The notes beneath the pieces were generated by a model. That model was not told the origin of the DNA, ran no database searches, and saw nothing but the letters and a program-made list of their open reading frames with translations. The position numbers and the translations under genes are program-made. 64,000 nt of DNA from an uncultured Planctomycetales bacterium (GTDB taxonomy: Bacteria; Omnitrophota; Gorgyraeia; Zapsychrales; JAHFFX01): positions 87,174-151,173 of the forward strand of contig CAYXGG010000001.1 of assembly GCA_964464475.1 (NCBI GenBank). The letters run 5' to 3'. The first letter of the stretch is position 1, and each line of letters starts with the position of its first letter. Shown in pieces: positions 5,491-63,197 of the stretch.

Positions 5491-5527
5491 AAAAAGCCCT
5501 CAATAAAATATTTATTGAGGGCTTTTT
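5491..5527. terminator. Bidirectional intrinsic terminator between the cupin gene and rpoN
   Basis: AAAAAGCCCTCAATAAA-ATAT-TTATTGAGGGCTTTTT forms a perfect 14-bp stem flanked by A/T runs on both sides. Confidence 0.7.
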
Positions 5528-6893
5528 ATTCTTTACGTAAATGTGATGGCAGTATGTTTAATTGCTGACGGTATTTGCTGATGGTTCGGCGGGCGATCGG
5601 CATCCCCTTTTGAGTAAAGCAATCTTGAATTTCCTGATCAGAAAGGGGGGAATGTTTATTTTCAGCGTCTATAAGATCTTTGATTTCTTCTTTAATGCCG
5701 CGACTAGATACTGTTTCGTTATTCCCATCAGATAACGCTTGAGAAAAGAAATATTTTAAAGCAACCGTCCCCAAAGGAGATTCAACGAATTTCCCTTGGA
5801 TAGCTCGACTGATGGTGGATTCATTGCGGTTGATGGCCTCAGCTACATCTTTTAGTGTCATTGGAATAATCGCTGTAGCAGTTCCTTCAAAGAAATCTTT
5901 TTGTTTCTCCAAGATGTATAGCGCGATTTGCTGAATAGTGTTCCCGCGTTGATCAACGCTTTTGATGAAGTTTATCGCGTCTTTAATTTTTTCCTTAATG
6001 AACTCACGTTCATCAGATTTGAGATTCTTATTTTCTAGCATTCTTTGATAAGTCATGTTTACTCTTAATTGGGGAATGCCATCTCGGCAGACGGAGACGC
6101 TGTAGCCTTGAAGGGGGTCCTTTTTGATAATCACGTCTGGTTTGATGTAGATGTTTGCGCTGAGGGGTCGAAAGTTTCTGGCGGGTTTAGGTTCTAAATT
6201 AGCAATCTTTTGGGCAGCTTCCTTGACCGAATCAATATTGACGCCCAGTTTGCGGGCAATATCTGAGAATTTTTTGCGACAAAGTTCATCAAAGCACTCT
6301 GTAATAATACGAGTCGCCAGGTCATGGTGTCCGCTAAAGCGAACCCGAACTTGAATCAATAAGCTTTCTTTGAGGTCTCGAGCGGCAATCCCGATAGGTT
6401 CAAAATGTTGAATAACCTCGAGCACATGCTTAACCAGATTTAGTTGTTCCGGGCAAAGCGACTCTGCGATTTCCTCGCAGGAAATGTTTAAGAAGCCGTC
6501 TTCGTTTAGATTCCCAATGATGGCTTCTCCAATTTTGAGTTGCAGAGGATCATTGAGCTCAAATTTTAGTTGTTCCAAAAGATTTTCTTCCAGGGAAAGT
6601 TTCTTGGTTAAGGGCTTTTCTTCCCATTTTTCATCATCGCTGAGGTATTCTTGTTTTTGTAGTTTAAGTTTTTCCGATTGACGCAGGGCGAATGCTTTTA
6701 ACTCAGCATCATTAATTTCAGGGCTCGGGAGAGGCGAGTTTTCTTCTATTTCCAAGAGGGGATTGTTTTGAAGTTCATGATCAATGGCTTGTGCTAATTC
6801 AGTCAGCGGTAGCTGCAAAACAGCTACTGATTGCTGAAGTAAAGGCGCCATGATTCCTTTTTGGATTTGTTTTGGAGATAAGTTAACTTTCAC
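5526..6893 (-). CDS. rpoN: RNA polymerase sigma-54 factor
   Basis: Region I is glutamine/leucine-rich (MAPLLQQSVAVLQLPLTELAQAI...NPLLE). The C-terminal RpoN box ARRTISKYR and the helix-turn-helix are present. Confidence 0.9.
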   Translation of the reverse strand: MKVNLSPKQIQKGIMAPLLQQSVAVLQLPLTELAQAIDHELQNNPLLEIEENSPLPSPEINDAELKAFALRQSEKLKLQKQEYLSDDEKWEEKPLTKKLSLEENLLEQLKFELNDPLQLKIGEAIIGNLNEDGFLNISCEEIAESLCPEQLNLVKHVLEVIQHFEPIGIAARDLKESLLIQVRVRFSGHHDLATRIITECFDELCRKKFSDIARKLGVNIDSVKEAAQKIANLEPKPARNFRPLSANIYIKPDVIIKKDPLQGYSVSVCRDGIPQLRVNMTYQRMLENKNLKSDEREFIKEKIKDAINFIKSVDQRGNTIQQIALYILEKQKDFFEGTATAIIPMTLKDVAEAINRNESTISRAIQGKFVESPLGTVALKYFFSQALSDGNNETVSSRGIKEEIKDLIDAENKHSPLSDQEIQDCFTQKGMPIARRTISKYRQQLNILPSHLRKE

Positions 6894-7024
6894 AGCAAAA
6901 AGTATACCATGAATAATTTTTGTTTGCCAAATTCAGGGTGAAATGCTGATGAAAATCGTTTAATGTTAATTTTATTGGACACGTCTTAAGTCGTTGGGTA
7001 ATATAAATTTACTCTATGTCCGGA

Positions 7025-7052
7025 TTTGTCTATGACAGTCATGTTGATTTTG
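7025..7052 (+). promoter_or_regulatory. Conserved upstream motif (candidate enhancer / PrsR-binding site), copy 1
   Basis: TTTGTCTATGACAGTCATGTTGATTTTG contains the nested palindromes TGTC-N3-GACA and ATGAC-A-GTCAT. Twenty of its first 21 nt recur at 56044. It lies about 150 bp upstream of the sigma-54 promoter at 7176. Confidence 0.5.
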
Positions 7053-7175
7053 GGCAACATAGGATTTCAATTTTAGTGTTGTGAAAATAATGATTGTTGA
7101 TAATATTGATCGTAAGTTATTTGAAATTATATATTTGCAGCTTTAAGGCAAGAAATTGTCTGGGATTGTCTAGGA

Positions 7176-7191
7176 TGGCATATATTTTGCT
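7176..7191 (+). promoter_or_regulatory. Sigma-54 (-24/-12) promoter for the EPS operon
   Basis: TGGCAT-ATATT-TTGCT matches the consensus TGGCAC-N5-TTGCW with exact GG/GC spacing. It sits 99 bp upstream of the first EPS-operon gene, and rpoN is divergently transcribed. Confidence 0.65.
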
Positions 7192-7289
7192 ATAACATAC
7201 CCGAATCCGATTGGCCCTGGTAATTATGGTGGGCTTAGGCTATACTTGAGCCATTGTGACAGCTCGGTAAAATTTTAGTGGGGTAAATT

Positions 7290-7511
7290 ATGGTAGAAGA
7301 ATTGCTGAACTTGGGGGAACCTGAGAACAAAAAACGTCTGACTATTACTGAAGTGGCTGAAATGGTCGGGATTAGTCCCAAAACTTTAGCCCGCTGGGAG
7401 AAGGTTGGCAAAATTAAGAAACCTAAAAGAGATTGGCGCGGCTGGAGGGTCTACGAAGAAGCCGACGTGCTCAGAATAAAAGAATTTCATGACACAGTTT
7501 TCGAAGTTTAA
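7290..7511 (+). CDS. Small MerR/excisionase-type helix-turn-helix DNA-binding protein
   Basis: LTITEVAEMVGISPKTLARWEKVGKI is a MerR-family helix-turn-helix. It is the first ORF after the sigma-54 promoter. Confidence 0.5.
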   Translation: MVEELLNLGEPENKKRLTITEVAEMVGISPKTLARWEKVGKIKKPKRDWRGWRVYEEADVLRIKEFHDTVFEV

Positions 7512-7536
7512 TTTTAAGATTAAGGAGAGACAACTC

Positions 7537-8358
7537 ATGCGAATCATTAGGATAATTAATCAATTAGTTCTAGGGGTTATGTGTTTTTCCAGCTTAGTTT
7601 GGGCTGAAAATCAAGGAAATTTTGTCGGTGGCGAAAGTGCCCAAGCTAAGGAAAAATGGCGTCCTCGGTCAGAACGAGTGAAAGAGCCAGAGCAAAAAGT
7701 GATCAGTGAGAGTAAAGAGCTAACAGCTGAAGAAATATTGATGCAGGTAGGCACAATGGCTGTTGCTGATGAGAAAGCCTACACATTGGGCATTGATGAT
7801 GTCTTGGAAATTCTGGTTCAGCGCCATCCCGAAGTCTCCGGTCAGTATGTCATTAATGGTGAAGGCAAGATTCAGTACGAATTTGTGGGAGATTTAAGTA
7901 TCGCGGGCTTAACCAAAGAGAAAGTTCGAGATTTAGTGGTTGAGCAATTATCAAAATATATTGTTTCACCCGATGTCACCGTAAAGATTATCGGTTATAA
8001 TAGCAAAGTGGTTTACGTGATCGGCGAAGTCGGTCGTCCAGGAAAGATTTTTATGCGGGGTGATACCATCACCGTTCGTGAAGCCTTGTTGGGCGCAGGA
8101 TTGCCGCTATTGTCTGCCGCAACGAAAAAAACTCGATTGATTACTCCTTCTGCGGATGGAAAACCCGCTCAGAAATTTATTAATGTTGAAGCTCTGCTTT
8201 ATGAAGGTGATTTAAGAGAAAACCTGGTGATGAATCCCGGTGACACGCTTTATATTCCCGCAACTGTTTTGGCAAAAGCTATGCGAGCCATCCAACCCGT
8301 CACACAACCACTGGGAGAAGCAGCGGGTACGACGCGATCGGTTTACCCCGGACTTTAA
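7537..8358 (+). CDS. Polysaccharide export protein (Wza/EpsE-like, Poly_export + SLBB domains)
   Basis: Signal peptide. PDVTVKIIGYNSKVVYVIGEVGRPGKI and GDTLYIP are Wza-family motifs. ATG 7537 follows ribosome-binding site AAGGAGAGA. Confidence 0.8.
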   Translation: MRIIRIINQLVLGVMCFSSLVWAENQGNFVGGESAQAKEKWRPRSERVKEPEQKVISESKELTAEEILMQVGTMAVADEKAYTLGIDDVLEILVQRHPEVSGQYVINGEGKIQYEFVGDLSIAGLTKEKVRDLVVEQLSKYIVSPDVTVKIIGYNSKVVYVIGEVGRPGKIFMRGDTITVREALLGAGLPLLSAATKKTRLITPSADGKPAQKFINVEALLYEGDLRENLVMNPGDTLYIPATVLAKAMRAIQPVTQPLGEAAGTTRSVYPGL

Positions 8359-8399
8359 TTTGAATCAATAGCTAACCAAAAAATAAGGAATTATTCGAT

Positions 8400-9692
8400 A
8401 TGGAAGAATTAAGTCAACAGGCCATTTCTCCGTTAAGTTATTTAAAAATATTTTTCAGGAGAAAAGAGTTACTTGTTGTCCCAATTTATGCGGGATTGAT
8501 CTTGGGTATTTGCGCTGGTTTAATACTGCCCAAGAAATACAAGTCGGCTACCATTATTTTGGTTGAAGAGGGAAAAACGGACAATCCCTTATTCGATAAG
8601 CTTGCCGTATCCACGAGTGTCAATCAAAGAATGAGAGCTATTCAGGAATCAATGTTGAGTTGGAATAGCTTGCTCAAGATGGTGAAAGTTTTGAACCTGG
8701 ATAAGGACGTTAAGAATCAGAGGGACTTGGAATTGTTAATTGAAGAGATTCGGGAAAAATTGTCAATAAAAATTAGAGGGCAGAATATTATTAACTTATC
8801 TTATGAAGGCGATGACCCGCGCACAACCCAAGCGGTCGTCAGGACAATTACAGAGATTTTTATTGAGCGAAATATTGGTATCCAAAATCAAGAAACTTCT
8901 GACGCCATTACTTTTATTGAGGCTCAGTTAAAAGTATATAAGAGTAAAATTAAATCTTCCGAAATTGCTCAACTACAGGATCAGCTTGACTCTCTTTTGG
9001 TGGATTCAACTGATTTGCATCCTCGAGTGAAAGAATTACGAGATAAAATTGATTTAAAGAGAAAAGAATTAGAGAAAGAAAAATTGGAATATACGACGGA
9101 TATAGGGTTTAAAGAAGAACCCAATAATCCTGTCATCGAAGAGATCAAAAAAGCCCTCGATAATTTGGAAACCAATACCGTTTCGTTGAATCCTGCCGCG
9201 AGTAAAGAGGGCGGAAAAGACATGTATAAAGTCATGCTGTTAGACAAAATGGAAAATGTCATGGCTCGCGATGCCGATGTGAATACTGCTATTTATAACA
9301 TGTTGTTGCAGCGATTGGAGACGGCAAAAATTACTCAGCGTTTGCAGGCATCCAAAGAGGGTACTAAATACACTATTCTTGACCCGCCTAGAATTCCGGT
9401 TGAACCATTTCAGCCTAACCGGCTGTTGGTTGCTTTTATGGGGCTCTTTTTAGGTGTTGTCGTTGGCGTGGGACTAGTCCTGATCTCGGAATTTTTGGAT
9501 AAATCATTTTTAGACGTTCAAGAAGCCAAGGAGTATTTGGGGACACCTTTACTTGGTGCCATTTCCAAAATTAATACGGTTGAGAGTATTCGTCAGGAAC
9601 GTGAATCTTCGGGATGGTTTGCCAGCTTGACCATTCTTACCGGAATTATTCTGGTTGTGATTACGGTGGTTGTTTCCAAACTCATTCATTAA
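8400..9692 (+). CDS. Polysaccharide chain-length determinant (Wzz/GumC/EpsF-like polysaccharide co-polymerase)
   Basis: Two transmembrane segments (N- and C-terminal) flank a coiled-coil periplasmic domain. The N-terminus (LSYLKIFFRRKELLVVPI) is typical of the family. Confidence 0.75.
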   Translation: MEELSQQAISPLSYLKIFFRRKELLVVPIYAGLILGICAGLILPKKYKSATIILVEEGKTDNPLFDKLAVSTSVNQRMRAIQESMLSWNSLLKMVKVLNLDKDVKNQRDLELLIEEIREKLSIKIRGQNIINLSYEGDDPRTTQAVVRTITEIFIERNIGIQNQETSDAITFIEAQLKVYKSKIKSSEIAQLQDQLDSLLVDSTDLHPRVKELRDKIDLKRKELEKEKLEYTTDIGFKEEPNNPVIEEIKKALDNLETNTVSLNPAASKEGGKDMYKVMLLDKMENVMARDADVNTAIYNMLLQRLETAKITQRLQASKEGTKYTILDPPRIPVEPFQPNRLLVAFMGLFLGVVVGVGLVLISEFLDKSFLDVQEAKEYLGTPLLGAISKINTVESIRQERESSGWFASLTILTGIILVVITVVVSKLIH

Positions 9693-9710
9693 GGCTTACG
9701 GAGAATCGGA

Positions 9711-10604
9711 ATGTATTTGCAATATTATGGTTTTCAGGAACCGCCCTTTAATATAACGCCGAATTCGCGATTCTTTTTCGCGAGTACCAAGCATACGGAA
9801 GCATTGAATACGATGGTGTACGCTATTTCGGAGCGTAAAGGGTTTGTGGTTATTTCCGGGGATATTGGCTCTGGCAAGACAACGGTTTGCCGTACGCTCG
9901 TCAATCAGCTTGATTCTCGAACTCAGGTCGCGCTGATCACCAATACTTTGCTTAGCGGTCGGGATTTATTGACGGCTATTCTCGATGATTTGGAAATTGA
10001 TTATCGACCAGGTTCAAAAGCTAAATTATTGTCACAGCTTAACGATTATCTTATTCAACAGCTAAAAGATGATAATAATGTGGTGCTCATTATTGATGAA
10101 GCTCAGAATTTAACGCCGTCTTGTTTAGAAGAAGTACGATTGCTTTCTAATTTGGAGACGGAAAACGAAAAATTGATTCAAATTATTTTTCTCGGTCAGC
10201 CAGAGTTGAAAAAGAAATTGGCATTGGCGAGGTTAGAGCAGTTAAGGCAACGAATCGCGGTATATTATCACTTAAGTCCGTTAACGATTGAAGAAACCTT
10301 TGACTATATTTTGCATCGTTTAAAGGTGGCTAGTGGTTCAGATCGGAAGTTTTTTACTGACGGAGCGTTGGATCTTATTTACAAATTTTCTAGGGGTGTT
10401 CCCCGCTTAGTTAATCAGATTTGTGACAGTTCTTTGTTGAGTGGTTATGTCGCTGAAGCTACGATAATCGATGAGAAGATTCTACATGAAGTCATCGCGG
10501 AATCTCCTATGACGCTAATTGCTGGAGAGGTCCGAGTGTCTTCCTCTAAAGAGTCTACACCCCCAGCTGCGGAAGATTTAACTAAGCTGTATTTTAAAGG
10601 CTAG
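9711..10604 (+). CDS. AAA ATPase of the ExeA/GspA family (PEP-CTERM-locus secretion-ATPase-like)
   Basis: QEPPFNITPNSRFFF...Walker A GDIGSGKTT...Walker B VLIIDEAQNL. Only the ATPase domain is present; there is no transmembrane or peptidoglycan-binding domain. Confidence 0.75.
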   Translation: MYLQYYGFQEPPFNITPNSRFFFASTKHTEALNTMVYAISERKGFVVISGDIGSGKTTVCRTLVNQLDSRTQVALITNTLLSGRDLLTAILDDLEIDYRPGSKAKLLSQLNDYLIQQLKDDNNVVLIIDEAQNLTPSCLEEVRLLSNLETENEKLIQIIFLGQPELKKKLALARLEQLRQRIAVYYHLSPLTIEETFDYILHRLKVASGSDRKFFTDGALDLIYKFSRGVPRLVNQICDSSLLSGYVAEATIIDEKILHEVIAESPMTLIAGEVRVSSSKESTPPAAEDLTKLYFKG

Positions 10605-47369: not shown

Positions 47370-47397
47370 TTGACAACTGGAGGAGGGGTGCTATACT
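47370..47397 (+). promoter_or_regulatory. Sigma-70 promoter driving the riboswitch leader
   Basis: TTGACA-N16-TATACT. Confidence 0.5.
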
Positions 47398-47439
47398 TTC
47401 GGCTGAAAGAAGTTCTCGATCTTTAAATAGCTGACTGAT

Positions 47440-47580
47440 ACTAGTAAACCATTCGGAAGAGTGGGACACAAAGCTAACCATGCTTTCTAGAGGTTCTTAA
47501 GGAAGCAGGTGCTCCAGTCCGTAGATGGCTGGAGTAGGGCCTAACCCCGTGTTGTGGATGTTGCCGGGCAGGTTGCCAGT
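47440..47580 (+). promoter_or_regulatory. Candidate c-di-GMP-I (GEMM) riboswitch aptamer
   Basis: GUAAACCAUUCGGAAGAGUGGGACACAAAGC reproduces the GEMM junction elements. These are the G-CAAA junction, a P2 hairpin CCAUUC-GGAA-GAGUGG with a GNRA loop, and GAC-ACAAAGC. It is followed by a CUCCAG...CUGGAGUAGG hairpin and a CCUAACC receptor-like element. From memory it closely resembles V. cholerae Vc2 (CAAACCAUUCGAAAGAGUGGGACGCAAAGCC). Confidence 0.45.
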
Positions 47581-47641
47581 TGCCAAAGCAGAGATAAGAT
47601 CGGTTAAATTAGCCGTTGTTAAGCTTTTAACTGATAATTGA

Positions 47642-47690
47642 CCTATTCTCAAAGGCGTGTCCATGTTCCGAGAGTAGGTTTTTTTATTTT
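47642..47690 (+). terminator. Intrinsic terminator (riboswitch expression platform)
   Basis: CCTATTCTC-19 nt-GAGAGTAGG followed by TTTTTTTATTTT, 54 bp before the ATG of the beta-helix gene. Confidence 0.55.
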
Positions 47691-47743
47691 ATGAGAAAAA
47701 ATTTCATCTATTCATTATCCAGGTTTCAGAAAGGGGTGCAACG

Positions 47744-54487: not shown

Positions 54488-55306
54488 ATGCCAATTATTA
54501 GAAAATATGCCGCAGAGTTGTTGGTCGGTGGGCTTTTTTTGTTAGCCTATTTTCCTATTTTATTATGGATGTTTAGTCGTTGGTTTGCGAGAGACTCTTA
54601 CTATAGTCACGGGATATTGGTTCCTTTTGTGGCCGCTTTTTTAATCTGGCAAAATCGGGATGAATTAACTAAAATTCAGAGAGTTCCAGATTATCGTGGG
54701 CTGATATTGATTTTTATCGGTCTATTTGTTTTAGTGGTTAGTTCGACGTTAAGAATATACTTTTCAGCGGCGTTTAGTATGCCCATAGTTTTAGTTGGGC
54801 TGGTGATGCTTTTTGGGGGAAATAGTTTATTGAAGGCTCTTTCGTTCCCGCTGGCGTTCACATTATTCATGATCCCATTGCCAGAGGTCGTTATTACCAA
54901 TATTAGTTTTAATATGAAAATATTTGCGGCGCAAATTGCCACGCATGTTTTAAATAATAATCTAAGAATGCCAGCGGTACGCGAGGGGAGTCTTATTAAA
55001 ATGCGCAGTGCCTATGTCATGGTGGATGATGTGTGTAGTGGTTTAAGATCGCTTATTTCATTGACTGCTTTGGGTAGTGTTTTTGCTTACTGGTTAAAGG
55101 GCGCTTGGTGGAAGAGGTTGCTTCTATTTGCTTCAACGATCCCCATTGCCATTATTACCAATGTCGTTCGGATTATCTTTCTTTCCGCAGTGAGTGAGAT
55201 TTGGGGGCCACAATACGCTTCTGGATTTTTGCATGATCTTTCGGGGTTTTTGGTTTTTGGATTGGCCTTCTTATTATTATTTGCAGTTTCAAAGCTAATA
55301 GAATAA
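54488..55306 (+). CDS. Exosortase (EpsH/XrtA family transpeptidase)
   Basis: Eight transmembrane helices. The conserved Cys lies in MVDDVCSGLRSLISL and the Arg in ITNVVRIIFL. The N-terminus MPIIRKYAAELLVGGLFLLAYFPILLWMFSRW is typical. Confidence 0.85.
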   Translation: MPIIRKYAAELLVGGLFLLAYFPILLWMFSRWFARDSYYSHGILVPFVAAFLIWQNRDELTKIQRVPDYRGLILIFIGLFVLVVSSTLRIYFSAAFSMPIVLVGLVMLFGGNSLLKALSFPLAFTLFMIPLPEVVITNISFNMKIFAAQIATHVLNNNLRMPAVREGSLIKMRSAYVMVDDVCSGLRSLISLTALGSVFAYWLKGAWWKRLLLFASTIPIAIITNVVRIIFLSAVSEIWGPQYASGFLHDLSGFLVFGLAFLLLFAVSKLIE

Positions 55307-55307
55307 A

Positions 55308-55949
55308 ATGTTGATAAAAAAATCAGCTTATGTAGTAATTTTGGTTTCATTTTTGGGGGTCGGGTTCATTTCTTGGTTGTTGTATTTTAAAGATCAGAAC
55401 CAACAAGATACGGTTAATATTCAAGTTTTCCCGAAGGCTATAGCTGACTGGAGCGGGGTAGATCAAGTTATTAGCGAAGAAGACTATGCTATTTTGGAAA
55501 CCAGAAATGTTCTGGCTCGAAGATACACTCAGGCTGGTACGGGTCGACAAATAGATTTACTTATTGTTTATTCAGAGCATAATCGTAAAGTGTCTCATCC
55601 TCCCGAGATTTGTTTTACGGGTGGTGGGTTGTCTATTCTGGAAAGTAAGCGCGCAGTCTTAAATCTAGATAAGAACGGCCGAGGGTTAGAAGCGGTGCGG
55701 CTGCTTATGGATTTGAAGGGAACGCCGCTGTATTCCTTCTATTGGTTTAAAGTCGGTAATTCTGTAACCTCTAACTACTGGAGGCAACAATTTTTGATTG
55801 CTTTAAAGATTTTTTCTGGGCAACCGCATAGTAGCGCCTTGATAAGGTTGACATTAGAAATAAAACTGGATGACAAAATCGAAGCCGTTGCTACTGCGGA
55901 GAAGTTCGCCGATCTTGTTTTTCCTGCCGTAAAGCAGTATCTGCCGTAA
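55308..55949 (+). CDS. EpsI-family exosortase-associated protein
   Basis: N-terminal transmembrane segment then the EpsI domain, immediately after the exosortase gene (1-nt gap). Confidence 0.75.
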   Translation: MLIKKSAYVVILVSFLGVGFISWLLYFKDQNQQDTVNIQVFPKAIADWSGVDQVISEEDYAILETRNVLARRYTQAGTGRQIDLLIVYSEHNRKVSHPPEICFTGGGLSILESKRAVLNLDKNGRGLEAVRLLMDLKGTPLYSFYWFKVGNSVTSNYWRQQFLIALKIFSGQPHSSALIRLTLEIKLDDKIEAVATAEKFADLVFPAVKQYLP

Positions 55950-56043
55950 TTCTTCGCGCTGCAGAGTGCTAATTGACTAGGTTTAGGAATTTGCTGCTTT
56001 TTTTAAACATGTGTTGTGTCGGATAAACACTGGTAATGGGGTG

Positions 56044-56072
56044 TTTGTCTAGGACAGTCATGTATTTGATTG
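56044..56072 (+). promoter_or_regulatory. Conserved upstream motif (candidate enhancer / PrsR-binding site), copy 2
   Basis: TTTGTCTAGGACAGTCATGTATTTGATTG matches copy 1 at 7025 (20 of the first 21 nt identical). It lies about 127 bp upstream of the sigma-54 promoter at 56173. Confidence 0.5.
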
Positions 56073-56172: not shown

Positions 56173-56188
56173 TGGCACAAAATTTGCT
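56173..56188 (+). promoter_or_regulatory. Sigma-54 (-24/-12) promoter
   Basis: TGGCAC-AAAAT-TTGCT matches the consensus perfectly, 47 bp upstream of ATG 56235. Confidence 0.7.
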
Positions 56189-56234: not shown

Positions 56235-57059
56235 ATGAGTCGATATACTAAATTAATATTTTTGAGCATATTAGCAATTTTGACCGTGGTAAGTACTGTT
56301 TTTGCTATACCGGTTAAATCTGATGACGCTAGGGAAGTCATAGAAGAGGCAAGGATTTCTCAAATTCCGGCTCAGTTGCCAACAGATTCGAAGTCTAGAG
56401 CTCCGGAGCCCACGTCCATGGCGCTTTTTGGGAGTGGTATATTGGGGATGGTTGTCAGTTTCTTTCGTCGTACCTATATTTTGATAAAGAGAGCATTTGA
56501 TGTTTTTGCTGCGATCCTAGGTTTGCTGTTCTTGGCGCCGCTTTTTGTTATTGCCGCTTTCTTGATAAAATTTACTTCAAAAGGGCCAATTATTTATAAG
56601 CAAGTTAGAGTTGGAAAAAACGGTAAGCTTTTTGAAATTTATAAATTTCGTTCAATGCGTACGGATGCTGAAAAAGATAGTGGCCCTGTTTGGGCTAAAG
56701 CCAACGATAATCGTCTCATCCCGCCGGGAAAATTTTTAAGAAAAACCCGAATTGATGAATTACCTCAATTTATTAATGTTCTAAAAGGTGATATGAGCTT
56801 GATCGGGCCTCGTCCGGAGCGACCTGTTTTTGTTGAGAAATTTAAAGAAGTTATTCCTGACTACGAGAAGCGTCTGGCCGTCAAACCTGGGATTACGGGA
56901 TTAGCTCAAGTGTGGCATAAATATGATGAAACGATTGAGGATGTTAAAAAGAAAATTCGTTATGATTTGGTTTATATTAAAAAAGTCAATTTGTGGACTG
57001 ATTTAGGAATATTTTTTAGAACATTTCGAGTTGTTATTACTGGTCAAGGCGCTCAATAA
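56235..57059 (+). CDS. Bacterial sugar transferase (polyprenyl-phosphate phosphoglycosyl transferase, small WbaP/PglC type) with an in-frame N-terminal signal peptide plus PEP-CTERM-like motif
   Basis: Residues 1-79 form a signal peptide and ...SRAPEPTSMALFGSGILGMVVSFFRR (PEP, a transmembrane helix, then RR). This runs without a stop into IKRAFDVFAAILGLLFLAPLF...GPIIYKQVRVGKNGKLFEIYKFRSMR...GPRPERP, the sugar-transferase core. A TTG at 56481 would give a typical MIKRAFD start but has no ribosome-binding site. Confidence 0.7.
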   Translation: MSRYTKLIFLSILAILTVVSTVFAIPVKSDDAREVIEEARISQIPAQLPTDSKSRAPEPTSMALFGSGILGMVVSFFRRTYILIKRAFDVFAAILGLLFLAPLFVIAAFLIKFTSKGPIIYKQVRVGKNGKLFEIYKFRSMRTDAEKDSGPVWAKANDNRLIPPGKFLRKTRIDELPQFINVLKGDMSLIGPRPERPVFVEKFKEVIPDYEKRLAVKPGITGLAQVWHKYDETIEDVKKKIRYDLVYIKKVNLWTDLGIFFRTFRVVITGQGAQ

Positions 57060-57146: not shown

Positions 57147-57428
57147 ATGAAAAGTACATTTTCAAAGTTAAAAATTTTATCTTTGTTAGGATTTATGCCT
57201 GCAATTTATGGTTGTGGGGCTGGTGGTGGGGCTTTAGGGGCTCTTTTTGGTGCAGTGGGTGGAGGTGTTGCTTCAGCTTTTGGTGGAGGTGGTTCTTTAG
57301 CGTTAGACAGTGGGGGTGGCAGTGGTGGTATTGGTGTTGCGACATTTCATAATCCAGAACCCACATCAATGGCATTATTAGGAACAGGGATGGCTGCCAT
57401 GGCGCTTTATCGAAAGTTTAAGAAATAG
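57147..57428 (+). CDS. Small glycine-rich PEP-CTERM protein (exosortase substrate)
   Basis: Signal peptide (possible lipobox IYGC), about 45 aa of glycine-rich low-complexity sequence, then C-terminal PEPTSMALLGTGMAAMALYRKFKK. Ribosome-binding site TAAGGAG. Confidence 0.8.
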   Translation: MKSTFSKLKILSLLGFMPAIYGCGAGGGALGALFGAVGGGVASAFGGGGSLALDSGGGSGGIGVATFHNPEPTSMALLGTGMAAMALYRKFKK

Positions 57429-57460: not shown

Positions 57461-57497
57461 GAGGCGGCGGGTGAGATATTCACCTGTCGCCTTTTTT
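57461..57497 (+). terminator. Intrinsic terminator after the PEP-CTERM gene
   Basis: GGCGGCGGGTGA-GATAT-TCACCTGTCGCC (12-bp stem with two G-U wobbles) followed by TTTTTTTT. Confidence 0.8.
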
Positions 57498-57524
57498 TTG
57501 AATAGGCAAATTAATCTGAACTGG

Positions 57525-57552
57525 AATTGACAGCCACATGTCAAATGATAGA
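57525..57552 (+). promoter_or_regulatory. Candidate sigma-70 promoter with an overlapping inverted repeat
   Basis: TTGACA-N16-TAGAAT. The inverted repeat TGACA-gccaca-TGTCA overlaps the -35 region. Confidence 0.4.
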
Positions 57553-57609
57553 ATTAATCACAAGTCGTTGATAAATAAATAATTTATAAACTATTATAGA
57601 TAAAGAATC

Positions 57610-58479
57610 ATGCCTTCTCGAAGTAGTAAACACGTCATATCCTTACTGAAAACTGCTATTGTTGCGATAGTCGAGCATCCAATAATTTTGTTTCCTTTTT
57701 TGATTTTGGTATTTATTCAATTGTTGCTTCTAGAGGTTTTATTTTTTTCTCCGCGCTATCCTTTGTCAATATTTTTCTCCCCATTGATTCGCACTTTATA
57801 TGGAGAAGCTTTTTTACATTACCCAAACAACTTTATATTAATACCTAAACTTTTTCAATATGTGCAAATGGGGACGTACATTTTCTTTGCTAGTTATTTA
57901 ATTGGGGTATGTGTTGAAATTATTTACCTTATTAATGCCGAAAAGAAATTTACCCTAAGAGCTGTTTTTCGTAGCGTCTTGTCTAGATACGTACATTTAT
58001 TGATGGCGGCAGTAGTCATGTACGTAACGTTTTATTTATTCTTTAGTTCTTATGATGTTTTGTTGCAGCGAGCGAGAATGATTAGATCTGAAGCAGGGGT
58101 TTTCTTCTTAATAAAGGAAATAATTGTTGTTGCCACGCCTTATGTCAACCTTTTTGTAGGAGCCTTGGCGACCGCCCTATATGCATTTGTGGTTCCTTTT
58201 ATCGTGATTGACAGGAAAAAAGTATTTGTAGCAATATGGGAGAATTTTCGTTTATTAAGTAAATCATTTTGGATGGTTTTAGTCACGGTTATTCTGGCAA
58301 CAATGCTGTATTTGCCCATTTTATTTTTTCGGAATAACGTCGGCCTGTGGGCCGATGATTACTTTCCAAGTCTAAGGGTTTGGATTATTGTAATCAGTAT
58401 TATCGTTCAAGCCTTTATTGATTGCGTTATCTATTCGAGTCTAACAAGTTATTTTCTTTTTCTGAAAGAGCAGAAATGA
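57610..58479 (+). CDS. Polytopic membrane protein, unknown function
   Basis: About 8 transmembrane helices; no motifs. Confidence 0.45.
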   Translation: MPSRSSKHVISLLKTAIVAIVEHPIILFPFLILVFIQLLLLEVLFFSPRYPLSIFFSPLIRTLYGEAFLHYPNNFILIPKLFQYVQMGTYIFFASYLIGVCVEIIYLINAEKKFTLRAVFRSVLSRYVHLLMAAVVMYVTFYLFFSSYDVLLQRARMIRSEAGVFFLIKEIIVVATPYVNLFVGALATALYAFVVPFIVIDRKKVFVAIWENFRLLSKSFWMVLVTVILATMLYLPILFFRNNVGLWADDYFPSLRVWIIVISIIVQAFIDCVIYSSLTSYFLFLKEQK

Positions 58480-59384
58480 AGAAGTGCATTGTTTTTATGG
58501 TTCTTGTTTTGGGCGGGATGTTTCTTTTATTTACTGTTTTGGGTCAAGATGGTGATTATGGCGCAGAACAAGAAATGTGGATAGCTAACAAGAAATTTAA
58601 ATTAATTACTCTGGATCCGGCTAATACTCCAGATCAGGAATTTATTAGATTAGAAAAGGTTTATCGAAAAGTAATTAATCGGTACCCGAACTCGTATTTA
58701 ATTAATCAGGCGTATCTTAATATTGGAAGAATGTATGTCTATAAACGAGATTATCGACTAGCTAGAGAGAAGTATCAGGAGATAATAAGAAATTTTCCTC
58801 AAAATCGGATCCTGACATCTGAGGCTTGGATCGCGATGGGGCAGAGTTTTGAGCTGGAGGAGAACTCGCAGGAGGCATTGAGAATTTATAAAATGGTGAT
58901 TAACCAGTTTTCGGAGACTGACTCTGGGCTAATGGCTCCGCTGTATGTAATAAACTTTTTGAAGAAACTAAAGAAAGATGAGGATCTTGAGGAGTTTTTG
59001 ATTCAAGTTGAGCCGCATTATCGAAATTTAGCTAGTAAGCACAAGGGGTCAGCCTTAGAGATTAAATCATTACGTATGTTAACAAACGCTTATTTGCAGC
59101 AAGAGAAATGGGATGCCGCCGTATCTGTCTTGGGAGATATATTATTGCAGTCAATGGCTTCAAGCCAATTGACTCCACAAGAGGCAAATGTTCTTATAAG
59201 ATCAATAAACGCTATCTCAATTACTGAATTGAAGAATTATGATTTGCCGATTAAAATCTACGAAGAATTTATTGCCAGTTACCCTAACCACGGTCTTAGT
59301 CGCCTCATGAAGGAATTGATTAAAGCTTTGACTGCTTTGAAATCTCAGAAGGCGGAGTTTACTCCAAAGAGTTTTGTGCCATGA
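58476..59384 (+). CDS. Secreted TPR-repeat protein
   Basis: Signal peptide (MKKCIVFMVLVLGGMFLLFTVLG) and TPR-like helical repeats (YLNIGRMYVYKRDYRLAREKYQEIIRNFP). ATGA overlap with the previous gene. Confidence 0.55.
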   Translation: MKKCIVFMVLVLGGMFLLFTVLGQDGDYGAEQEMWIANKKFKLITLDPANTPDQEFIRLEKVYRKVINRYPNSYLINQAYLNIGRMYVYKRDYRLAREKYQEIIRNFPQNRILTSEAWIAMGQSFELEENSQEALRIYKMVINQFSETDSGLMAPLYVINFLKKLKKDEDLEEFLIQVEPHYRNLASKHKGSALEIKSLRMLTNAYLQQEKWDAAVSVLGDILLQSMASSQLTPQEANVLIRSINAISITELKNYDLPIKIYEEFIASYPNHGLSRLMKELIKALTALKSQKAEFTPKSFVP

Positions 59385-60700
59385 AAACTACTTCTGCTCA
59401 ACATTCTGAAGAGATGCTTTTGGGAAAGCCCAATGCTTTTCAAAAAGTCAGCGACATTTGTTCCGGTGTTAATTCGGTCAAAGACGAAAACGAGTTGCTG
59501 ACTCAGAATCTGGGTCAACTCTTAGAGCTATTCTCAGCCAGGAGGGGCTCGATATTTATTTTTAATGCCCGGCGAAAAGAGTTGGATCTTAAGGTATCTA
59601 AAGGAATGGCTACAGCTGAACAGAAACATTTGGTCAAGCGTATGGGGGAGGGAGTGGTTGGGAAAGTTGCAGAATTGAAGCAGCCAATTGTGGTTGATGA
59701 TATCTCTAAGGACGATCGGTTTCATAATTATCATGCTCGGGGAAGTTATCGTTCACCTTCTTTCATTTGTGCTCCTTTGTTGTTAAAAGATCAGTTGTTG
59801 GGAGTCATTAGTATCGCAGACAAAGTATCTGGACAGAGGTTTAGTAAAGATGAATTGCTTTTGCTCGACTTTTTGTCGAGTCAGATAGCCTTGAATTATA
59901 AACGGATAAAGTTATATAAGAAATTCAGAAATGTTATTAAAGAGGCGCAAAGTTTAAAGAACGCTTTGGGAAAAAAGTCCGATGAGGCTAATCAGCTCAG
60001 AAAACAGATCGTTGTTCAAGAAAAGTTTGCTTCTATTGGTAAATTGGCGGGTGGAATCGCGCATGAGTTTAATAATCCACTTGACGGGGTTATTCGATAC
60101 ACGAATCTTTCTTTAGAACATCTGAAGAATGATGATGTTGTTCGTGGGTATCTGTTGGAAATAAGGCAAGGATTGCATCGAATGGCCAATATTGTTAGGA
60201 ATTTATTGGCTTGTTCCCGAAATACTCAGGCAAGTATGCAAAAGGTTGATGTGAATCATCGAATTGAGCAGGTCGTGAATGGACTGCAGTCAGATTTTTT
60301 TATGAAGGGAATTAATTTGCGGAAGGATTTCTCTAAAGATATTCCGCTGGTCGTTGATTTAGGGTTAGACTTGATTTTCTCTAATTTACTAAGAAATGCT
60401 ATTGATGCGGTAAAATCAGGCGGTACTATAAAAATATCTACAAGGTTTGCTCAAGAAGTTCTTACTATCCGAGTTGAGGATAATGGATGCGGGATTCCCT
60501 CCGAAATGATGGAGCAGATATTTGAACCATTCTTCACCACTAAGGATATCGAGAAGGGGTGCGGTTTGGGTTTAACAATTGTAGATGAGATTGTCAAAAG
60601 TTATGGCGGGCGTATCCATTTGGAGAGTGCGCCGGATAAAGGAACGGCTTTTACGATCACATTACCAGCGAAGGTATCTACTTATGCAAAAAAACACTAA
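59381..60700 (+). CDS. Cytoplasmic GAF-domain sensor histidine kinase (PrsK-like position)
   Basis: GAF domain (GVVGKVAELKQPIVVDDISKDDRF). HisKA with the phospho-accepting His in GGIAHEFNNPL. HATPase_c N/G boxes (LRNAIDA, DNGCGIP, GCGLGL). No transmembrane segments. Confidence 0.8.
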   Translation: MKTTSAQHSEEMLLGKPNAFQKVSDICSGVNSVKDENELLTQNLGQLLELFSARRGSIFIFNARRKELDLKVSKGMATAEQKHLVKRMGEGVVGKVAELKQPIVVDDISKDDRFHNYHARGSYRSPSFICAPLLLKDQLLGVISIADKVSGQRFSKDELLLLDFLSSQIALNYKRIKLYKKFRNVIKEAQSLKNALGKKSDEANQLRKQIVVQEKFASIGKLAGGIAHEFNNPLDGVIRYTNLSLEHLKNDDVVRGYLLEIRQGLHRMANIVRNLLACSRNTQASMQKVDVNHRIEQVVNGLQSDFFMKGINLRKDFSKDIPLVVDLGLDLIFSNLLRNAIDAVKSGGTIKISTRFAQEVLTIRVEDNGCGIPSEMMEQIFEPFFTTKDIEKGCGLGLTIVDEIVKSYGGRIHLESAPDKGTAFTITLPAKVSTYAKKH

Positions 60701-62096
60701 CAATCATCTTCATATTTTGATTGTCGATGATGAGCCTTTGATACGTCAATCATTGTTTGAAAGTCTGAGGATTGAAGGTTTTCAAGCCACGATGTCGAGT
60801 AATGGCGAAGATGCCTTGGAAAAGTTAAGAAATAACAAAGTAGATATTCTATTAACTGATTTAAAGTTGCCCAAAATGTCCGGTATTCAATTGTTAGAGA
60901 AAGTTAAAAAAGACTACCCGCAAATTGAGGTGATTTTGATTACGGGATTTGGAACGATCGAGACGGCTGTTGAAGCGATGCGTAAAGGCGCTTACGACTA
61001 TATTACTAAGCCAATAAATGACCAAGAGGTGCGTTTGATTTTGCAGAAAATTGTGGAAAAGAAACAGATTCTGCAAGAAAACCAAGATTTAAAGAAAATT
61101 ATTGATAGAACGACGCCTAATTCATTTTGTAGTTTAGTCGGTCGCAGCGAGAAAATGCAGAAAGTTTATCAGATCATTGAATCAGTGGCGAGCACAAATG
61201 CGACTATATTAATTAATGGGGAGAGTGGCACGGGTAAAGGAATGACGGCTAACGCTATTCATCAAAGCGATCGACTCCGCGGCGATAAGCCATTTGTAGA
61301 GGTTAGTTGTGGGGCTTTATCGGAAACTTTGTTGGAAAGTGAGCTGTTTGGTCATGTGAAAGGGGCGTTTACGGGTGCAATTAAGGATAAGGAGGGGCGT
61401 TTTGAATTTGCCAAAGGGGGTACCATCTTTCTCGATGAAATTGACGCCTTTTCGCCTAATTTGCAGGTTAAGTTATTGAGGGTTCTTCAAGATGGGGTTT
61501 TTGAAAGAGTGGGGGATAATAAAACGCGCCACGCGGATGTGCGAATTATTGTGGCTACTAACCAAAATCTAAATGAATTGGTCGCGAAGGGGAAGTTTCG
61601 AGAGGATTTGTATTATCGCATTAATGTCATTGCCATTCCTTTGCCACCCTTAAGAGAGCGTCGGGATGATATTGAGTTTTTAGCCAAATTCTTTATTGAG
61701 AAATACAGTAAAATTAATCGTAAGTCTGTGTCTGGGCTTTCATTGGAAGCTTTGGATCTTTTTAAGGGGTACCATTGGCCTGGAAATGTTCGAGAGCTCG
61801 AAAATGCTATTGAGGGTGCTGTTATTATGGCCAAAAAAGAAATAATTCAAAAAGAGGATATTCCATCTGTTAATCGGATGTTGGAGGGGTATGGCGCTCG
61901 CTCGGCGATGGTTGGTTCGAGTTCAGATTTGGATCAATCTCTGAAGAAAAATTTAGAAACACCTGAGAAAGAACTTATTCTTGCAGTGTTAGAAGAATGT
62001 CGCTGGAATAGAAATAAGGCTGCTGAAAGGTTAGGAATTAATCGGACCACGTTGTATAACAAAATGAAGAAGTACAATATATCTTTTGATAAATAA
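60684..62096 (+). CDS. Sigma-54-dependent response regulator (NtrC family; PEP-CTERM-box regulator PrsR-like)
   Basis: Receiver domain (ILIVDDEP...D in DLKLPKMSG). AAA+ Walker A GESGTGKG, the GAFTGA motif and the ESELFGH arginine-finger region. C-terminal Fis-type helix-turn-helix (RWNRNKAAERLGINRTTLYNKMKK). Start at internal ATG 60684; the upstream part of the tracked ORF is an out-of-frame extension into the kinase gene. Confidence 0.85.
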   Translation: MQKNTNNHLHILIVDDEPLIRQSLFESLRIEGFQATMSSNGEDALEKLRNNKVDILLTDLKLPKMSGIQLLEKVKKDYPQIEVILITGFGTIETAVEAMRKGAYDYITKPINDQEVRLILQKIVEKKQILQENQDLKKIIDRTTPNSFCSLVGRSEKMQKVYQIIESVASTNATILINGESGTGKGMTANAIHQSDRLRGDKPFVEVSCGALSETLLESELFGHVKGAFTGAIKDKEGRFEFAKGGTIFLDEIDAFSPNLQVKLLRVLQDGVFERVGDNKTRHADVRIIVATNQNLNELVAKGKFREDLYYRINVIAIPLPPLRERRDDIEFLAKFFIEKYSKINRKSVSGLSLEALDLFKGYHWPGNVRELENAIEGAVIMAKKEIIQKEDIPSVNRMLEGYGARSAMVGSSSDLDQSLKKNLETPEKELILAVLEECRWNRNKAAERLGINRTTLYNKMKKYNISFDK

Positions 62097-62117
62097 TAAT
62101 TTGCAAACATTTTTCTT

Positions 62118-63197
62118 ATGATGCCCGAAGATTTCAAAAATATGGCAACTGAGTTAATTGTTAAGGATCGGTGGGCCGGATTGCTGGCTCATTTTACCGA
62201 GGCTTTAAGAATTAATTTATTCTTAATGGATTGTGAAGGGAGGATCGTTTTACCGTCCTCTAAGGGCCGTTTTGGCAGCTCTTTGCTGGCAAATTCGGCT
62301 TTCGCTGGTGATTTGGTCTCAAATCCCGGAAATTTTCTAAAGAAATTCGTAAGCAGTAGCGGACATTACCTAGAAAATAAAATGCCTGCTGGCTTTTATT
62401 CCTATGCAATTCCGATTATTGGGAAGGATAGTGAGATTCTAGCGTATTTGATTGTTGGCCCCGTAATTATTGGACAGAGATTGGACAAACAAGATTATCG
62501 TAGTGCTGCGCGCAATATGGGTCTTGATGAGGAAGAATTTCTGGAAGTAGTTGATGAAGTAAAAGTTTTGTCTCATCTGTCGCTAAAAGCAACCCTGGAT
62601 CTTTTGGCTGAAGTGCTTGAATATGGCGTTCAAATGAATTCTCAAAAACAAGAGTTGGAGCATCTAAAGCTAAATATGGGTCTGCTTTCTGTTAAAGCTT
62701 CTCAAGAGCTCAAAGATATATATTCTTCTATATATTTTGATGAGTTGCTAGTGTCGCTTTTAGATGCGGCATTAAGTATGTCTAAAGCTGATACCGGTTC
62801 AGTCATGCTTGTTGATAAAGAAGGAAAAGGCTTGAGTATTAAAGCTTCTAGGGGGGTTTCTAAGAGTTATACGGAGAGTTCAATCATTCCATTGGGGCAA
62901 GGCTTGGCAGGTTGGGTAGTTCAACATAAAAAACCTCTTGTAATCTCTGGTGAAACTGAAAATAACCGAATTAAGCATCTTCTGAAAAGGCCAGAAATTA
63001 GGCAATCGTTGGTAATTCCGTTAGCTGTACAAAATACCATTTTGGGAGTTCTAAATTTGAGTACGTATTCAAAGGAGATCAGTATTTCTTCAGAACAAAC
63101 TTTTCAAGCAGTTTCCCACCTAGTTAGTTTAACCGCATCCGCATTGCTTAATATTCAGCAGAAAATTGAGACAGCGCCGCCTAATCAAATTGCTTAG
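62118..63197 (+). CDS. Sensor protein with an N-terminal PocR-like ligand-binding region and a C-terminal GAF domain; no output domain
   Basis: The C-terminal ~150 aa show a GAF pattern (DTGSVMLVDKEGKGLSIKASRG...LGQGLAGWVV...LVIPL). The N-terminal assignment is weak. Confidence 0.45.
   Translation: MMPEDFKNMATELIVKDRWAGLLAHFTEALRINLFLMDCEGRIVLPSSKGRFGSSLLANSAFAGDLVSNPGNFLKKFVSSSGHYLENKMPAGFYSYAIPIIGKDSEILAYLIVGPVIIGQRLDKQDYRSAARNMGLDEEEFLEVVDEVKVLSHLSLKATLDLLAEVLEYGVQMNSQKQELEHLKLNMGLLSVKASQELKDIYSSIYFDELLVSLLDAALSMSKADTGSVMLVDKEGKGLSIKASRGVSKSYTESSIIPLGQGLAGWVVQHKKPLVISGETENNRIKHLLKRPEIRQSLVIPLAVQNTILGVLNLSTYSKEISISSEQTFQAVSHLVSLTASALLNIQQKIETAPPNQIA

Follow-up and report, generated by a model that had tools for sequence, protein, structure and literature searches.

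Which protein reads the conserved DNA upstream of the two sigma-54 promoters of an exosortase/PEP-CTERM exopolysaccharide locus? This question is raised by a 64-kb stretch of contig CAYXGG010000001.1 (the whole stretch of 64,000 nucleotides is called the window here), for which an earlier note had proposed that a motif recurring in front of both promoters is the enhancer of a PrsR-like regulon. We compared ~110 related loci, nearly all from Candidatus Omnitrophota, whose metagenome-assembled genomes (MAGs) also hold the nearest relatives of each protein tested. Within this set, 83 loci are anchored on a gene for a small helix-turn-helix (HTH) protein of the BldC type, including 80 genome loci and two metagenome loci found via that protein, and 27 metagenome loci were gathered for the second promoter type via the membrane protein that precedes the kinase. 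Sequence was visible for the 64-kb window and for at most 10 kb of flanks, and 1.2 Mb were scanned across the loci. This comparison makes it very likely that each site is a sigma-54 promoter preceded by a conserved control element, both at the head of an exosortase/PEP-CTERM exopolysaccharide locus. This element is built of two modules, and at a probability of roughly 55% we read the first, a dyad, as the binding site of an NtrC-type activator and the second, a set of TGTCY repeats, as operators of the BldC-like protein.

The sites from which the question arises are the following:

7176-7191, plus strand: sigma-54 promoter 1, TGGCAT-N5-TTGCT (TGGCAT-ATATT-TTGCT), TGGCATATATTTTGCT
56044-56063, plus strand: second copy of the motif, with TGTC at 56046-56049 and GACA at 56053-56056, 15 bp past a dyad
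56173-56188, plus strand: sigma-54 promoter 2, TGGCAC-N5-TTGCT (TGGCAC-AAAAT-TTGCT), TGGCACAAAATTTGCT

Both promoters have their GG and GC 10 nt apart, as sigma-54 (-24/-12) elements do, and they are the only matches to TGGCAY-N5-TTGCW without mismatch in the 64 kb. The exact consensus match on the plus strand at 7176-7191, spacing included, was found as the earlier note had described it, and its second promoter at 56173 is likewise a perfect match. For promoter 1, transcription is predicted to start near 7202, giving a leader of ~88 nt, and between enhancer and gene no block other than the promoter is strongly conserved across the loci. Ahead of the BldC-like gene, a sigma-54 promoter is retained in 72 of 79 loci, and the window locus itself encodes rpoN and a GAFTGA activator. 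The predicted 88-nt leader also contains AATTATGGT twice (7222-7230 and 7286-7294); the first copy opens a 7-codon upstream open reading frame (ORF) and the second holds the start codon of the HTH gene.

The motif TTTGTCTAnGACAGTCATGT stands at 7025-7044 and 56044-56063, upstream of the promoter in both cases, with 151 bp from its start to the TGG of promoter 1 and 129 bp to that of promoter 2. No other copy is present in the window even with three mismatches. Shuffled sequence predicts 0.02 copies by chance and two copies were reached in none of 100 shuffles, which bears out the recurrence of the motif before both promoters; the two copies agree in 19 of 20 positions (19/21) and not in 20 of 21 as had been counted.

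Across the related loci, the conserved block is ~55 bp long (TTTCC-N5-TGTCC-nGGT-n-TGTC-N3-GACA-N3-ATGTTyAwTCTTTTAAACAT), so that the 20-28 nt originally delimited represent the middle of a far larger element, and the motif takes in only the first four bases of the dyad ATGTT-N10-AACAT. Two nested palindromes had been described within it: TGTC-N3-GACA is conserved, whereas ATGAC-a-GTCAT is specific to this genome and not kept elsewhere, and was rejected as a functional palindrome for want of conservation across loci. Promoter, element and spacing are kept together in 41 (strict palindrome) to ~53 (weight matrix) of the 83 loci, and weight-matrix hits to the composite element occur essentially once per locus in the 1.2 Mb, before the BldC-like gene. 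In the 41 loci with the strict TGTC-N3-GACA, this palindrome lies 129-153 bp upstream of a TGG-N8-TTGC promoter, with a mode at 149-150 bp. The distances group at 129-133, 138-141 and 144-153 bp, and the groups are separated by about one turn of the helix. The gene order is stable as well, as the export gene directly follows the HTH gene in 76 loci and rpoN is divergent in 50. One locus (L024, 3770-3940 and 9751-9920) has the entire enhancer and sigma-54 promoter duplicated ~6 kb apart with an identical motif, one copy beside rpoN and the other ahead of the BldC-like gene.

Classical NtrC/NifA-type sigma-54 promoters such as glnAp2 and nifH combine an upstream activating sequence with a DNA bend made by integration host factor (IHF). 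The sites described here share with them a dyad 100-160 bp upstream, an AT-rich, IHF-like region in between, a spacing that depends on the face of the helix and a -24/-12 promoter, and it is because of this classical enhancer-dependent anatomy that we regard the reading as sigma-54 promoters with enhancers as very likely. They differ in that the dyad sequence is new and that a repeat module for a second, small protein would be fused to the activator site and, in some genomes, also to the -24 element. The intervening region at site 1 is:

7100-7140, no strand: AT-rich spacer with a weak IHF-like site, TAAGTTATTTGAAAT, between enhancer and promoter

Perfect matches to the IHF consensus in this interval occur in 8.5% of the loci compared to 1.2% of shuffles and cluster 44-47 and 57-58 bp from the TGG; the window's own match is weak. 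All that the loci have in common between enhancer and promoter is an AT-rich stretch with IHF-like matches, which is possibly a DNA-bending region, and an IHF site in it is suggestive, given a modest enrichment in AT-rich DNA.

Up to this point, the findings would also suit the idea from which the analysis started, namely that the whole element, including TGTC-N3-GACA and the repeats next to the promoter, is the enhancer of an NtrC-type, PrsR-like regulator; the BldC-like protein would then be a passenger or act elsewhere. A near-identical 20-mer precedes both sigma-54 promoters of the window, the element keeps a fixed and phased distance of ~150 bp, the regulator and rpoN are both encoded in the locus, and the proteobacterial PEP-CTERM box offers a precedent (PMC1569441). 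What separates this idea from our two-module reading is the behaviour of the two halves of the element when they are followed individually, beginning with the dyad:

7041-7060, no strand: dyad of site 1, ATGTTGATTTTGGGCAACAT, ATGTT-N10-AACAT, starting 135 bp upstream of the -24 TGG
56011-56030, no strand: dyad of site 2, GTGTT-gtgtcggata-AACAC, an inverted repeat with perfectly matching arms, 162 bp ahead of the TGG

The family of 20-bp dyads has the consensus ATGTTyAwTCTTTTAAACAT with a symmetric core TGTTnA-N6-TnAACA. The dyad accompanies the promoter in 59 of the 72 loci that have a sigma-54 promoter; among the seven that have none, it is found in one. From the dyad start to the TGG, the distance is 116-118, 123-127 or 134-139 bp, distant loci included, which amounts to helically phased positions at ~117, 125 and 136 bp for promoters of type 1. 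The arms of the dyad showed no covariation beyond the consensus in the comparison loci, which argues against a hairpin and is expected for a protein site. Promoters of type 2 give the same picture: sigma-54 promoters recur before the orthologous sugar transferase gene in L085, L087, L094, L100, L104 and L105, and also before genes of small glycine-rich PEP-CTERM proteins (L084, L089, L091). The orthologous promoters of L087, L094, L104 and L085 have the dyad 153-158 bp upstream. In L087, L094, L104 and at site 2 of the window, where it lies 154-162 bp upstream, the dyad is followed by an exact 15-bp gap and then by TGTC units, and since these promoters repeat both components, both modules belong to both promoter types, in opposite order and with fixed internal spacing. 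With 116-139 bp for type 1 and 153-162 bp for type 2, the dyad lies 80-200 bp upstream and co-occurs with the promoter, as an NtrC-type upstream activating sequence does. The tight coupling of the two modules at these enhancers fits a single PrsR-like site as well, but L085 keeps the sigma-54 promoter and the dyad, at 153 bp, and has no TGTC unit, which speaks against it.

The second module is made up of short direct repeats, which in the window are found at:

7017-7037, plus strand: TGTCY module of site 1, with TGTCC at 7017-7021, TGTCT at 7027-7031 and an inverted GACA at 7034-7037
7157-7175, plus strand: promoter-proximal direct TGTCT units, starting at 7157 and 7167, against the -24 element

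The module at 7017-7037 covers the core of the 20-nt motif, and a degenerate third unit precedes it at 7008-7012 (TTTAC, consensus TTTCC). What had been taken for a truncated copy of the motif does abut the -24 element, but consists of two direct 10-bp repeats, TGTCTGGGAT and TGTCTAGGAT, at 7157-7176; their register of -9/-10 and -19/-20 from the TGG is shared by nine loci of several lineages. TTGTCTnGGA occurs three times in the window, in all cases at the two sigma-54 promoters. The unit consensus is wwTGTCCyrG, and one unit is often inverted, which yields TGTC-N3-GACA. Neighbouring units are exactly 10 bp apart in 98 of 100 pairs and form arrays of 2-5 units; arrays of at least three units number 27 in the real and 2 in shuffled sequence, and 17 of the 27 fall into the 350 bp preceding the BldC-like gene, a region that makes up ~2% of the DNA scanned. 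The module is found in 55 of 72 loci with a sigma-54 promoter and in six of seven without.

In window-type loci the TGTCY units are distal to the dyad, farther from the promoter, but the more distant loci L068-L082 carry 3-5 GGACA units immediately 3' of the sigma-54 promoter, a poor position for an activator. In L060, L063, L074 and L075, the units flank sigma-70-like extended -10 promoters and no dyad is present. The arrays thus stay at the BldC-like gene across three different promoter architectures. Besides, in L009 (2746-2790), L011 (52-95) and L012 (5939-5980), a row of three TGTCC units spaced by 10 bp directly adjoins the -35 of a sigma-70-like promoter (TTGCAT/TTGCCA...TAATAT), ahead of a gene for an unrelated secreted protein of 187-189 aa a few kb upstream of rpoN, so that the repeat module is also in use outside sigma-54 promoters. 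Such arrays at sigma-70-like promoters that have neither dyad nor sigma-54 site are hard to reconcile with one NtrC-type enhancer. Moreover, Fis-type HTH dimers do not typically read direct repeats with an exact spacing of 10 bp. Taken together with the units downstream of promoters and the dyad-only locus, this makes it unlikely that the whole element is the site of a PrsR-like regulator alone.

Some G+C-rich relatives in MAGs labelled Planctomycetota/Brocadiia (L055, L066, L067, L072) were compared in the region 60-230 bp upstream of the HTH gene. All four have inverted and direct TGTCC/GGACA repeats just upstream of that gene. In L072 no sigma-54 promoter was detected; L055, L066 and L067 have one, their repeats lie ~88 bp after its -24, and TGTCG-N11-AACA is conserved in them at a constant distance of 222-224 bp upstream.

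The position of the GGACA units in the transcribed leader of the distant loci might also point to a role at the RNA level, such as GGA-type protein-binding motifs, and in L084 an array is located right behind an IS3-type transposase gene, as would befit leftovers of a mobile repeat without a function in regulation. Both explanations are highly improbable. The units of window-type loci lie ~150 bp upstream of the promoter, in the opposite strand sense and untranscribed; the Rfam scan of the window gave no matches and the dyad is free of covariation. Strict 10-bp phasing and syntenic conservation in dozens of genomes rather favour recognition as DNA.

Which protein might then read the repeats? 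The candidate we propose is the product of the gene they precede:

7290-7511, plus strand: 73-aa stand-alone MerR-type winged-helix protein of the BldC type, first operon gene after promoter 1

Its homologs measure 61-81 aa. Like the stand-alone winged helices of ~60-75 aa in the BldC family, the protein has neither a coiled coil nor an effector domain. Recognition helix and wing are nearly invariant (TITEV..G.S.KTLARWEK.GK..KPKRDWRGWRVY). The AlphaFold2 model (mean predicted local distance difference test score, pLDDT, of 80) consists of a helix-turn-helix, a wing and a C-terminal helix, and Foldseek matched it to BldC-DNA complexes with 42-44% identity over ~50 residues and also to the DNA-binding domains of CarH and RacA. 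The profile search against the PDB returned BldC (6amk/6ama, E = 1e-5), and the top NCBIfam model is NF033787 HTH_BldC, with 31.1 bits at a curated cutoff of 77.

CarH reads tandem direct repeats of ~11 bp in its operator and not a palindrome. It shares the MerR-type winged-helix domain with the small protein (Thermus CarH-DNA structure 5c8e, among the Foldseek matches), but CarH is a large B12-dependent tetramer and the protein described here a bare DNA-binding domain. The BldC protein of Streptomyces is much closer, as it is also a stand-alone MerR-type winged helix of ~70 aa that has no dimerisation or effector domain, and it binds direct repeats of 9-10 bp head-to-tail in variable number (Schumacher et al. 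2018, PMC5859096). The putative targets in our loci follow the same pattern, with direct repeats of a 9-10-bp period, a variable unit count and 10-bp arrays concentrated in silico at the gene's own promoter. The differences are that the unit is wwTGTCCyrG instead of AATTnnnnC, that the gene heads an exopolysaccharide operon in a phylum of the Gram-negative type and that the repeats are embedded in a sigma-54 enhancer.

OmpR/PhoB-type response regulators also read direct repeats ~10-11 bp apart. Accordingly, a third regulator encoded elsewhere, for instance a winged-helix protein of this type, might bind the TGTCY repeats and leave the BldC-like protein with different targets. The repeats do occur at promoters of other genes, our view is confined to the 64-kb window and the 10-kb flanks, and the same genomes contain Pho-box-like TTGTCAT arrays with 10-11-bp spacing (L077 at 8183, 12413 and 16705; L079 at 12433), although these are of another kind than the TGTCCyrG units close to the HTH gene. 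The crowding of 17 of 27 arrays before the BldC-like gene, their persistence there across the three promoter architectures and the joint invariance of recognition helix and repeat unit make this explanation quite improbable.

We infer the assignment of proteins to modules from the association observed between each module and its partner: because the TGTCY units accompany the BldC-like gene (7290-7511) also in loci that have no sigma-54 promoter, and the dyad accompanies the sigma-54 promoters, the originally described motif is more likely an operator of the BldC-like protein than an activator site. Several points weigh against this two-module reading. Both proteins and both modules are highly conserved within one phylum, so that their co-occurrence is an indirect association, and since the 83 loci were collected via the BldC-like gene, the proximity of repeats and gene is partly built into the sample. 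Only seven loci have no sigma-54 promoter, and some of the distant dyads score poorly. One protein complex could read both modules, as gaps of 3 bp or 15 bp couple them at every window-type enhancer. The dyads of sites 1 and 2 differ and the TGTC motif is nearly identical, exactly as the idea of a single PrsR-like site predicts. The half-sites of the palindrome, 7 bp apart, are odd for two winged-helix monomers, and other activators or repeat-binding regulators may be encoded outside the window.

For the dyad, the proposed partner is encoded in a conserved regulatory module behind site 2:

57610-63197, plus strand: conserved regulatory module (membrane protein of unknown family, TPR protein, kinase, activator, PocR/GAF protein)
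58422-59384, plus strand: TPR protein, beside the kinase
59381-60700, plus strand: soluble histidine kinase, its N-terminus soluble with GAF domains
60684-62096, plus strand: NtrC-type activator with receiver domain, GAFTGA and C-terminal HTH
62118-63197, plus strand: PocR/GAF protein at the end of the module

The gene order of this module is kept in L084, L085 and a third contig. With its receiver domain, GAFTGA motif and C-terminal HTH, the protein at 60684-62096 is the NtrC-type regulator that had been proposed, and its C-terminal HTH, more than 90% invariant among 120 orthologs, would suit a DNA target that is likewise conserved. The proposed enhancer of a PrsR-like regulon stands in part: there is a conserved sigma-54 control element, but the protein identities fall short and the dyad is the better candidate for the activator site. 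The regulator scores 411.6 bits against PrsR (TIGR02915, cutoff 502.6), its best model being AtoC-like and also below cutoff, and the kinase scores 96.8 bits against PrsK (TIGR02916, cutoff 300) and is a soluble GAF kinase, not a transmembrane one. Membership in PrsR and PrsK was rejected, as both proteins are below the curated thresholds. The TPR protein matched generic TPR models and no PrsT model at E <= 0.001. A sigma-70-like promoter (TTGACA-16-TAGAAT) is found at 57528-57556 ahead of the operon of membrane protein, TPR protein, kinase and activator; its -35 lies inside the palindrome TTGACA-gccaca-TGTCAA (GACA-N6-TGTC), possibly another operator.

The PEP-CTERM box described by Haft et al. 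(2006, PMC1569441) is a 17-nt motif that ends in TTTACA and precedes a sigma-54 site by ~63 nt. Together with PrsK/PrsR/PrsT it was found only in Proteobacteria, and more motifs were predicted elsewhere (PMC1569441); for pepA of Aquincola, RpoN dependence has been shown (PMC9850573). Our loci share with this system the sigma-54 promoter and conserved upstream motif before PEP-CTERM or exopolysaccharide genes, including sigma-54 sites before PEP-CTERM genes of an exosortase-bearing locus (promoter 2; L084, L089, L091), and an NtrC-type regulator, a kinase and a TPR protein adjoining the exosortase locus. They differ in the position of the element, ~117-162 bp upstream instead of ~63 nt, and in its sequence: neither TTTACA nor TGTAAA occurs within 220 bp upstream of either window promoter, and the proteobacterial box was rejected on this ground. 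Further differences are the soluble GAF kinase, the scores of both proteins under the curated thresholds, promoters that head an export operon and a priming transferase gene and not only single PEP-CTERM genes, and the added repeat module with its BldC-like gene. The system works like a PEP-CTERM box regulon, but fails the PrsR, PrsK and TTTACA tests. Motif 1 of the PEP-CTERM box may resemble the dyad in style (TGT-N12-ACA ends), which we note as a lead only. We found no description of the present system in Omnitrophota in the literature.

If both assignments hold, the soluble GAF kinase would phosphorylate the response regulator (60684-62096), which would oligomerise, and activator dimers would bind the dyad ATGTT-N10-AACAT as upstream activating sequence. 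The DNA would loop over the AT-rich spacer, possibly bent by IHF, and the activator would open the closed sigma-54 complexes at 7176-7191 and 56173-56188. The BldC-like protein, as first product of the operon, would then coat the TGTCY units, including the two against the -24 element, head-to-tail by analogy with BldC, and by occupying DNA next to the activator site and at the promoter it would exert feedback on the expression of its own gene. We infer the sign of this feedback from position and tentatively take a negative one to be the likeliest: units against the -24 and in the early transcribed region suggest repression, and units at the -35 of sigma-70 promoters suggest that the protein may activate as well.

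A second loop may exist at rpoN, which had been described correctly as divergent from the exopolysaccharide operon:

5526-6893, minus strand: rpoN (sigma-54), TIGR02395 401 bits against a cutoff of 277, adjacent in 50 loci
6894-6930, minus strand: predicted rpoN promoter, with -35 TTGGCA (6930-6925), 18 nt, extended -10 TGgTATACT and 7 nt to the start codon

The sigma-54 consensus TGGTATACTTTTTGCT (6909-6894) overlaps this promoter exactly. The corresponding 16-mer, TGGTATACTT(C/T)TTGC(A/T) (TGGTATACTTyTTGCw), is nearly invariant in ~30 loci and ends 0-4 nt before the rpoN start codon. As it is preceded by an A-tract, a -35 TTGnnn and a spacer of 17-18 nt (e.g. L002, 4630-4670), it reads as an extended -10 followed by 7 nt and thus as the start of a leaderless mRNA; the predicted rpoN mRNA has no Shine-Dalgarno sequence. 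Since the same 16-mer is also a full -24/-12 consensus, sigma-54 may compete with sigma-70 here, and its holoenzyme may occlude the sigma-70 promoter of its own gene. A productive divergent sigma-54 promoter sharing the enhancer was rejected because of the distance of 0-4 nt to the start codon; the conserved N-terminus encoded after the 16-mer and the absence of an internal Met in most orthologs also bear against it. The literature on rpoN autoregulation gave nothing useful. The combined picture, in which a BldC-like filament former is coupled to a sigma-54 enhancer as a feedback switch and sigma-54 limits its own synthesis at a leaderless rpoN promoter, is a tentative one, to which we give somewhat long odds.

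The genes next to the two promoters belong to the exosortase/PEP-CTERM exopolysaccharide locus:

7489-10604, plus strand: PEP-CTERM-type polysaccharide export protein, chain-length determinant and system ATPase, first structural genes of a long exopolysaccharide operon
54488-55306, plus strand: exosortase EpsH, directly upstream of site 2
55308-55949, plus strand: EpsI, just before site 2
56235-57059, plus strand: priming sugar transferase, downstream of promoter 2
57147-57428, plus strand: 93-aa glycine-rich PEP-CTERM protein ending in ...NPEPTSMALLGTGMAAMALYRKFKK, missed by the 100-aa ORF list
57461-57500: terminator-like hairpin after the gene of the PEP-CTERM protein

A long run of glycosyltransferases follows the genes at 7489-10604, and promoter 2 is predicted to drive the priming sugar transferase and the small PEP-CTERM protein. 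The sugar transferase has a PEP-CTERM-like segment, APEPTSMALFGSGILGMVVSFFRR, near its N-terminus, as do its orthologs in L087 and L105. Elsewhere in the window, ~320 nt of non-coding sequence (47375-47700) precede the gene of a 943-aa DUF4215-repeat protein; the G+C content is above that of the surroundings and a T-run stands at the end, there is no Rfam match, and the folding energy (z = -1.6) is not exceptional. At 239-2356, one ORF of 705 aa fuses hydroxymethylbilane synthase, uroporphyrinogen-III methyltransferase and uroporphyrinogen-III synthase and is followed by hemB and hemL.

If the two-module reading is right, the BldC-like protein made from the first gene may polymerise along TGTCY repeats of 10 bp that are joined at fixed spacing to the activator site; some lineages also have such repeats next to the -24 element or within the early transcribed region. 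Such a feedback switch at the level of the enhancer would be of a kind not described for sigma-54 promoters, and the locus would represent a natural example of a sigma-54 enhancer into which a BldC-type repeat binder is built. The short, defined elements lend themselves to tests with purified proteins or in a heterologous host, with no need for culturing. Besides, with these loci the idea of a PEP-CTERM regulatory box reaches beyond the Proteobacteria, into a phylum without cultured members in which the motif and the kind of kinase are different and a small regulator is added, and it yields predictions for how envelope polysaccharide is switched on in mostly ultra-small, possibly host-dependent bacteria.

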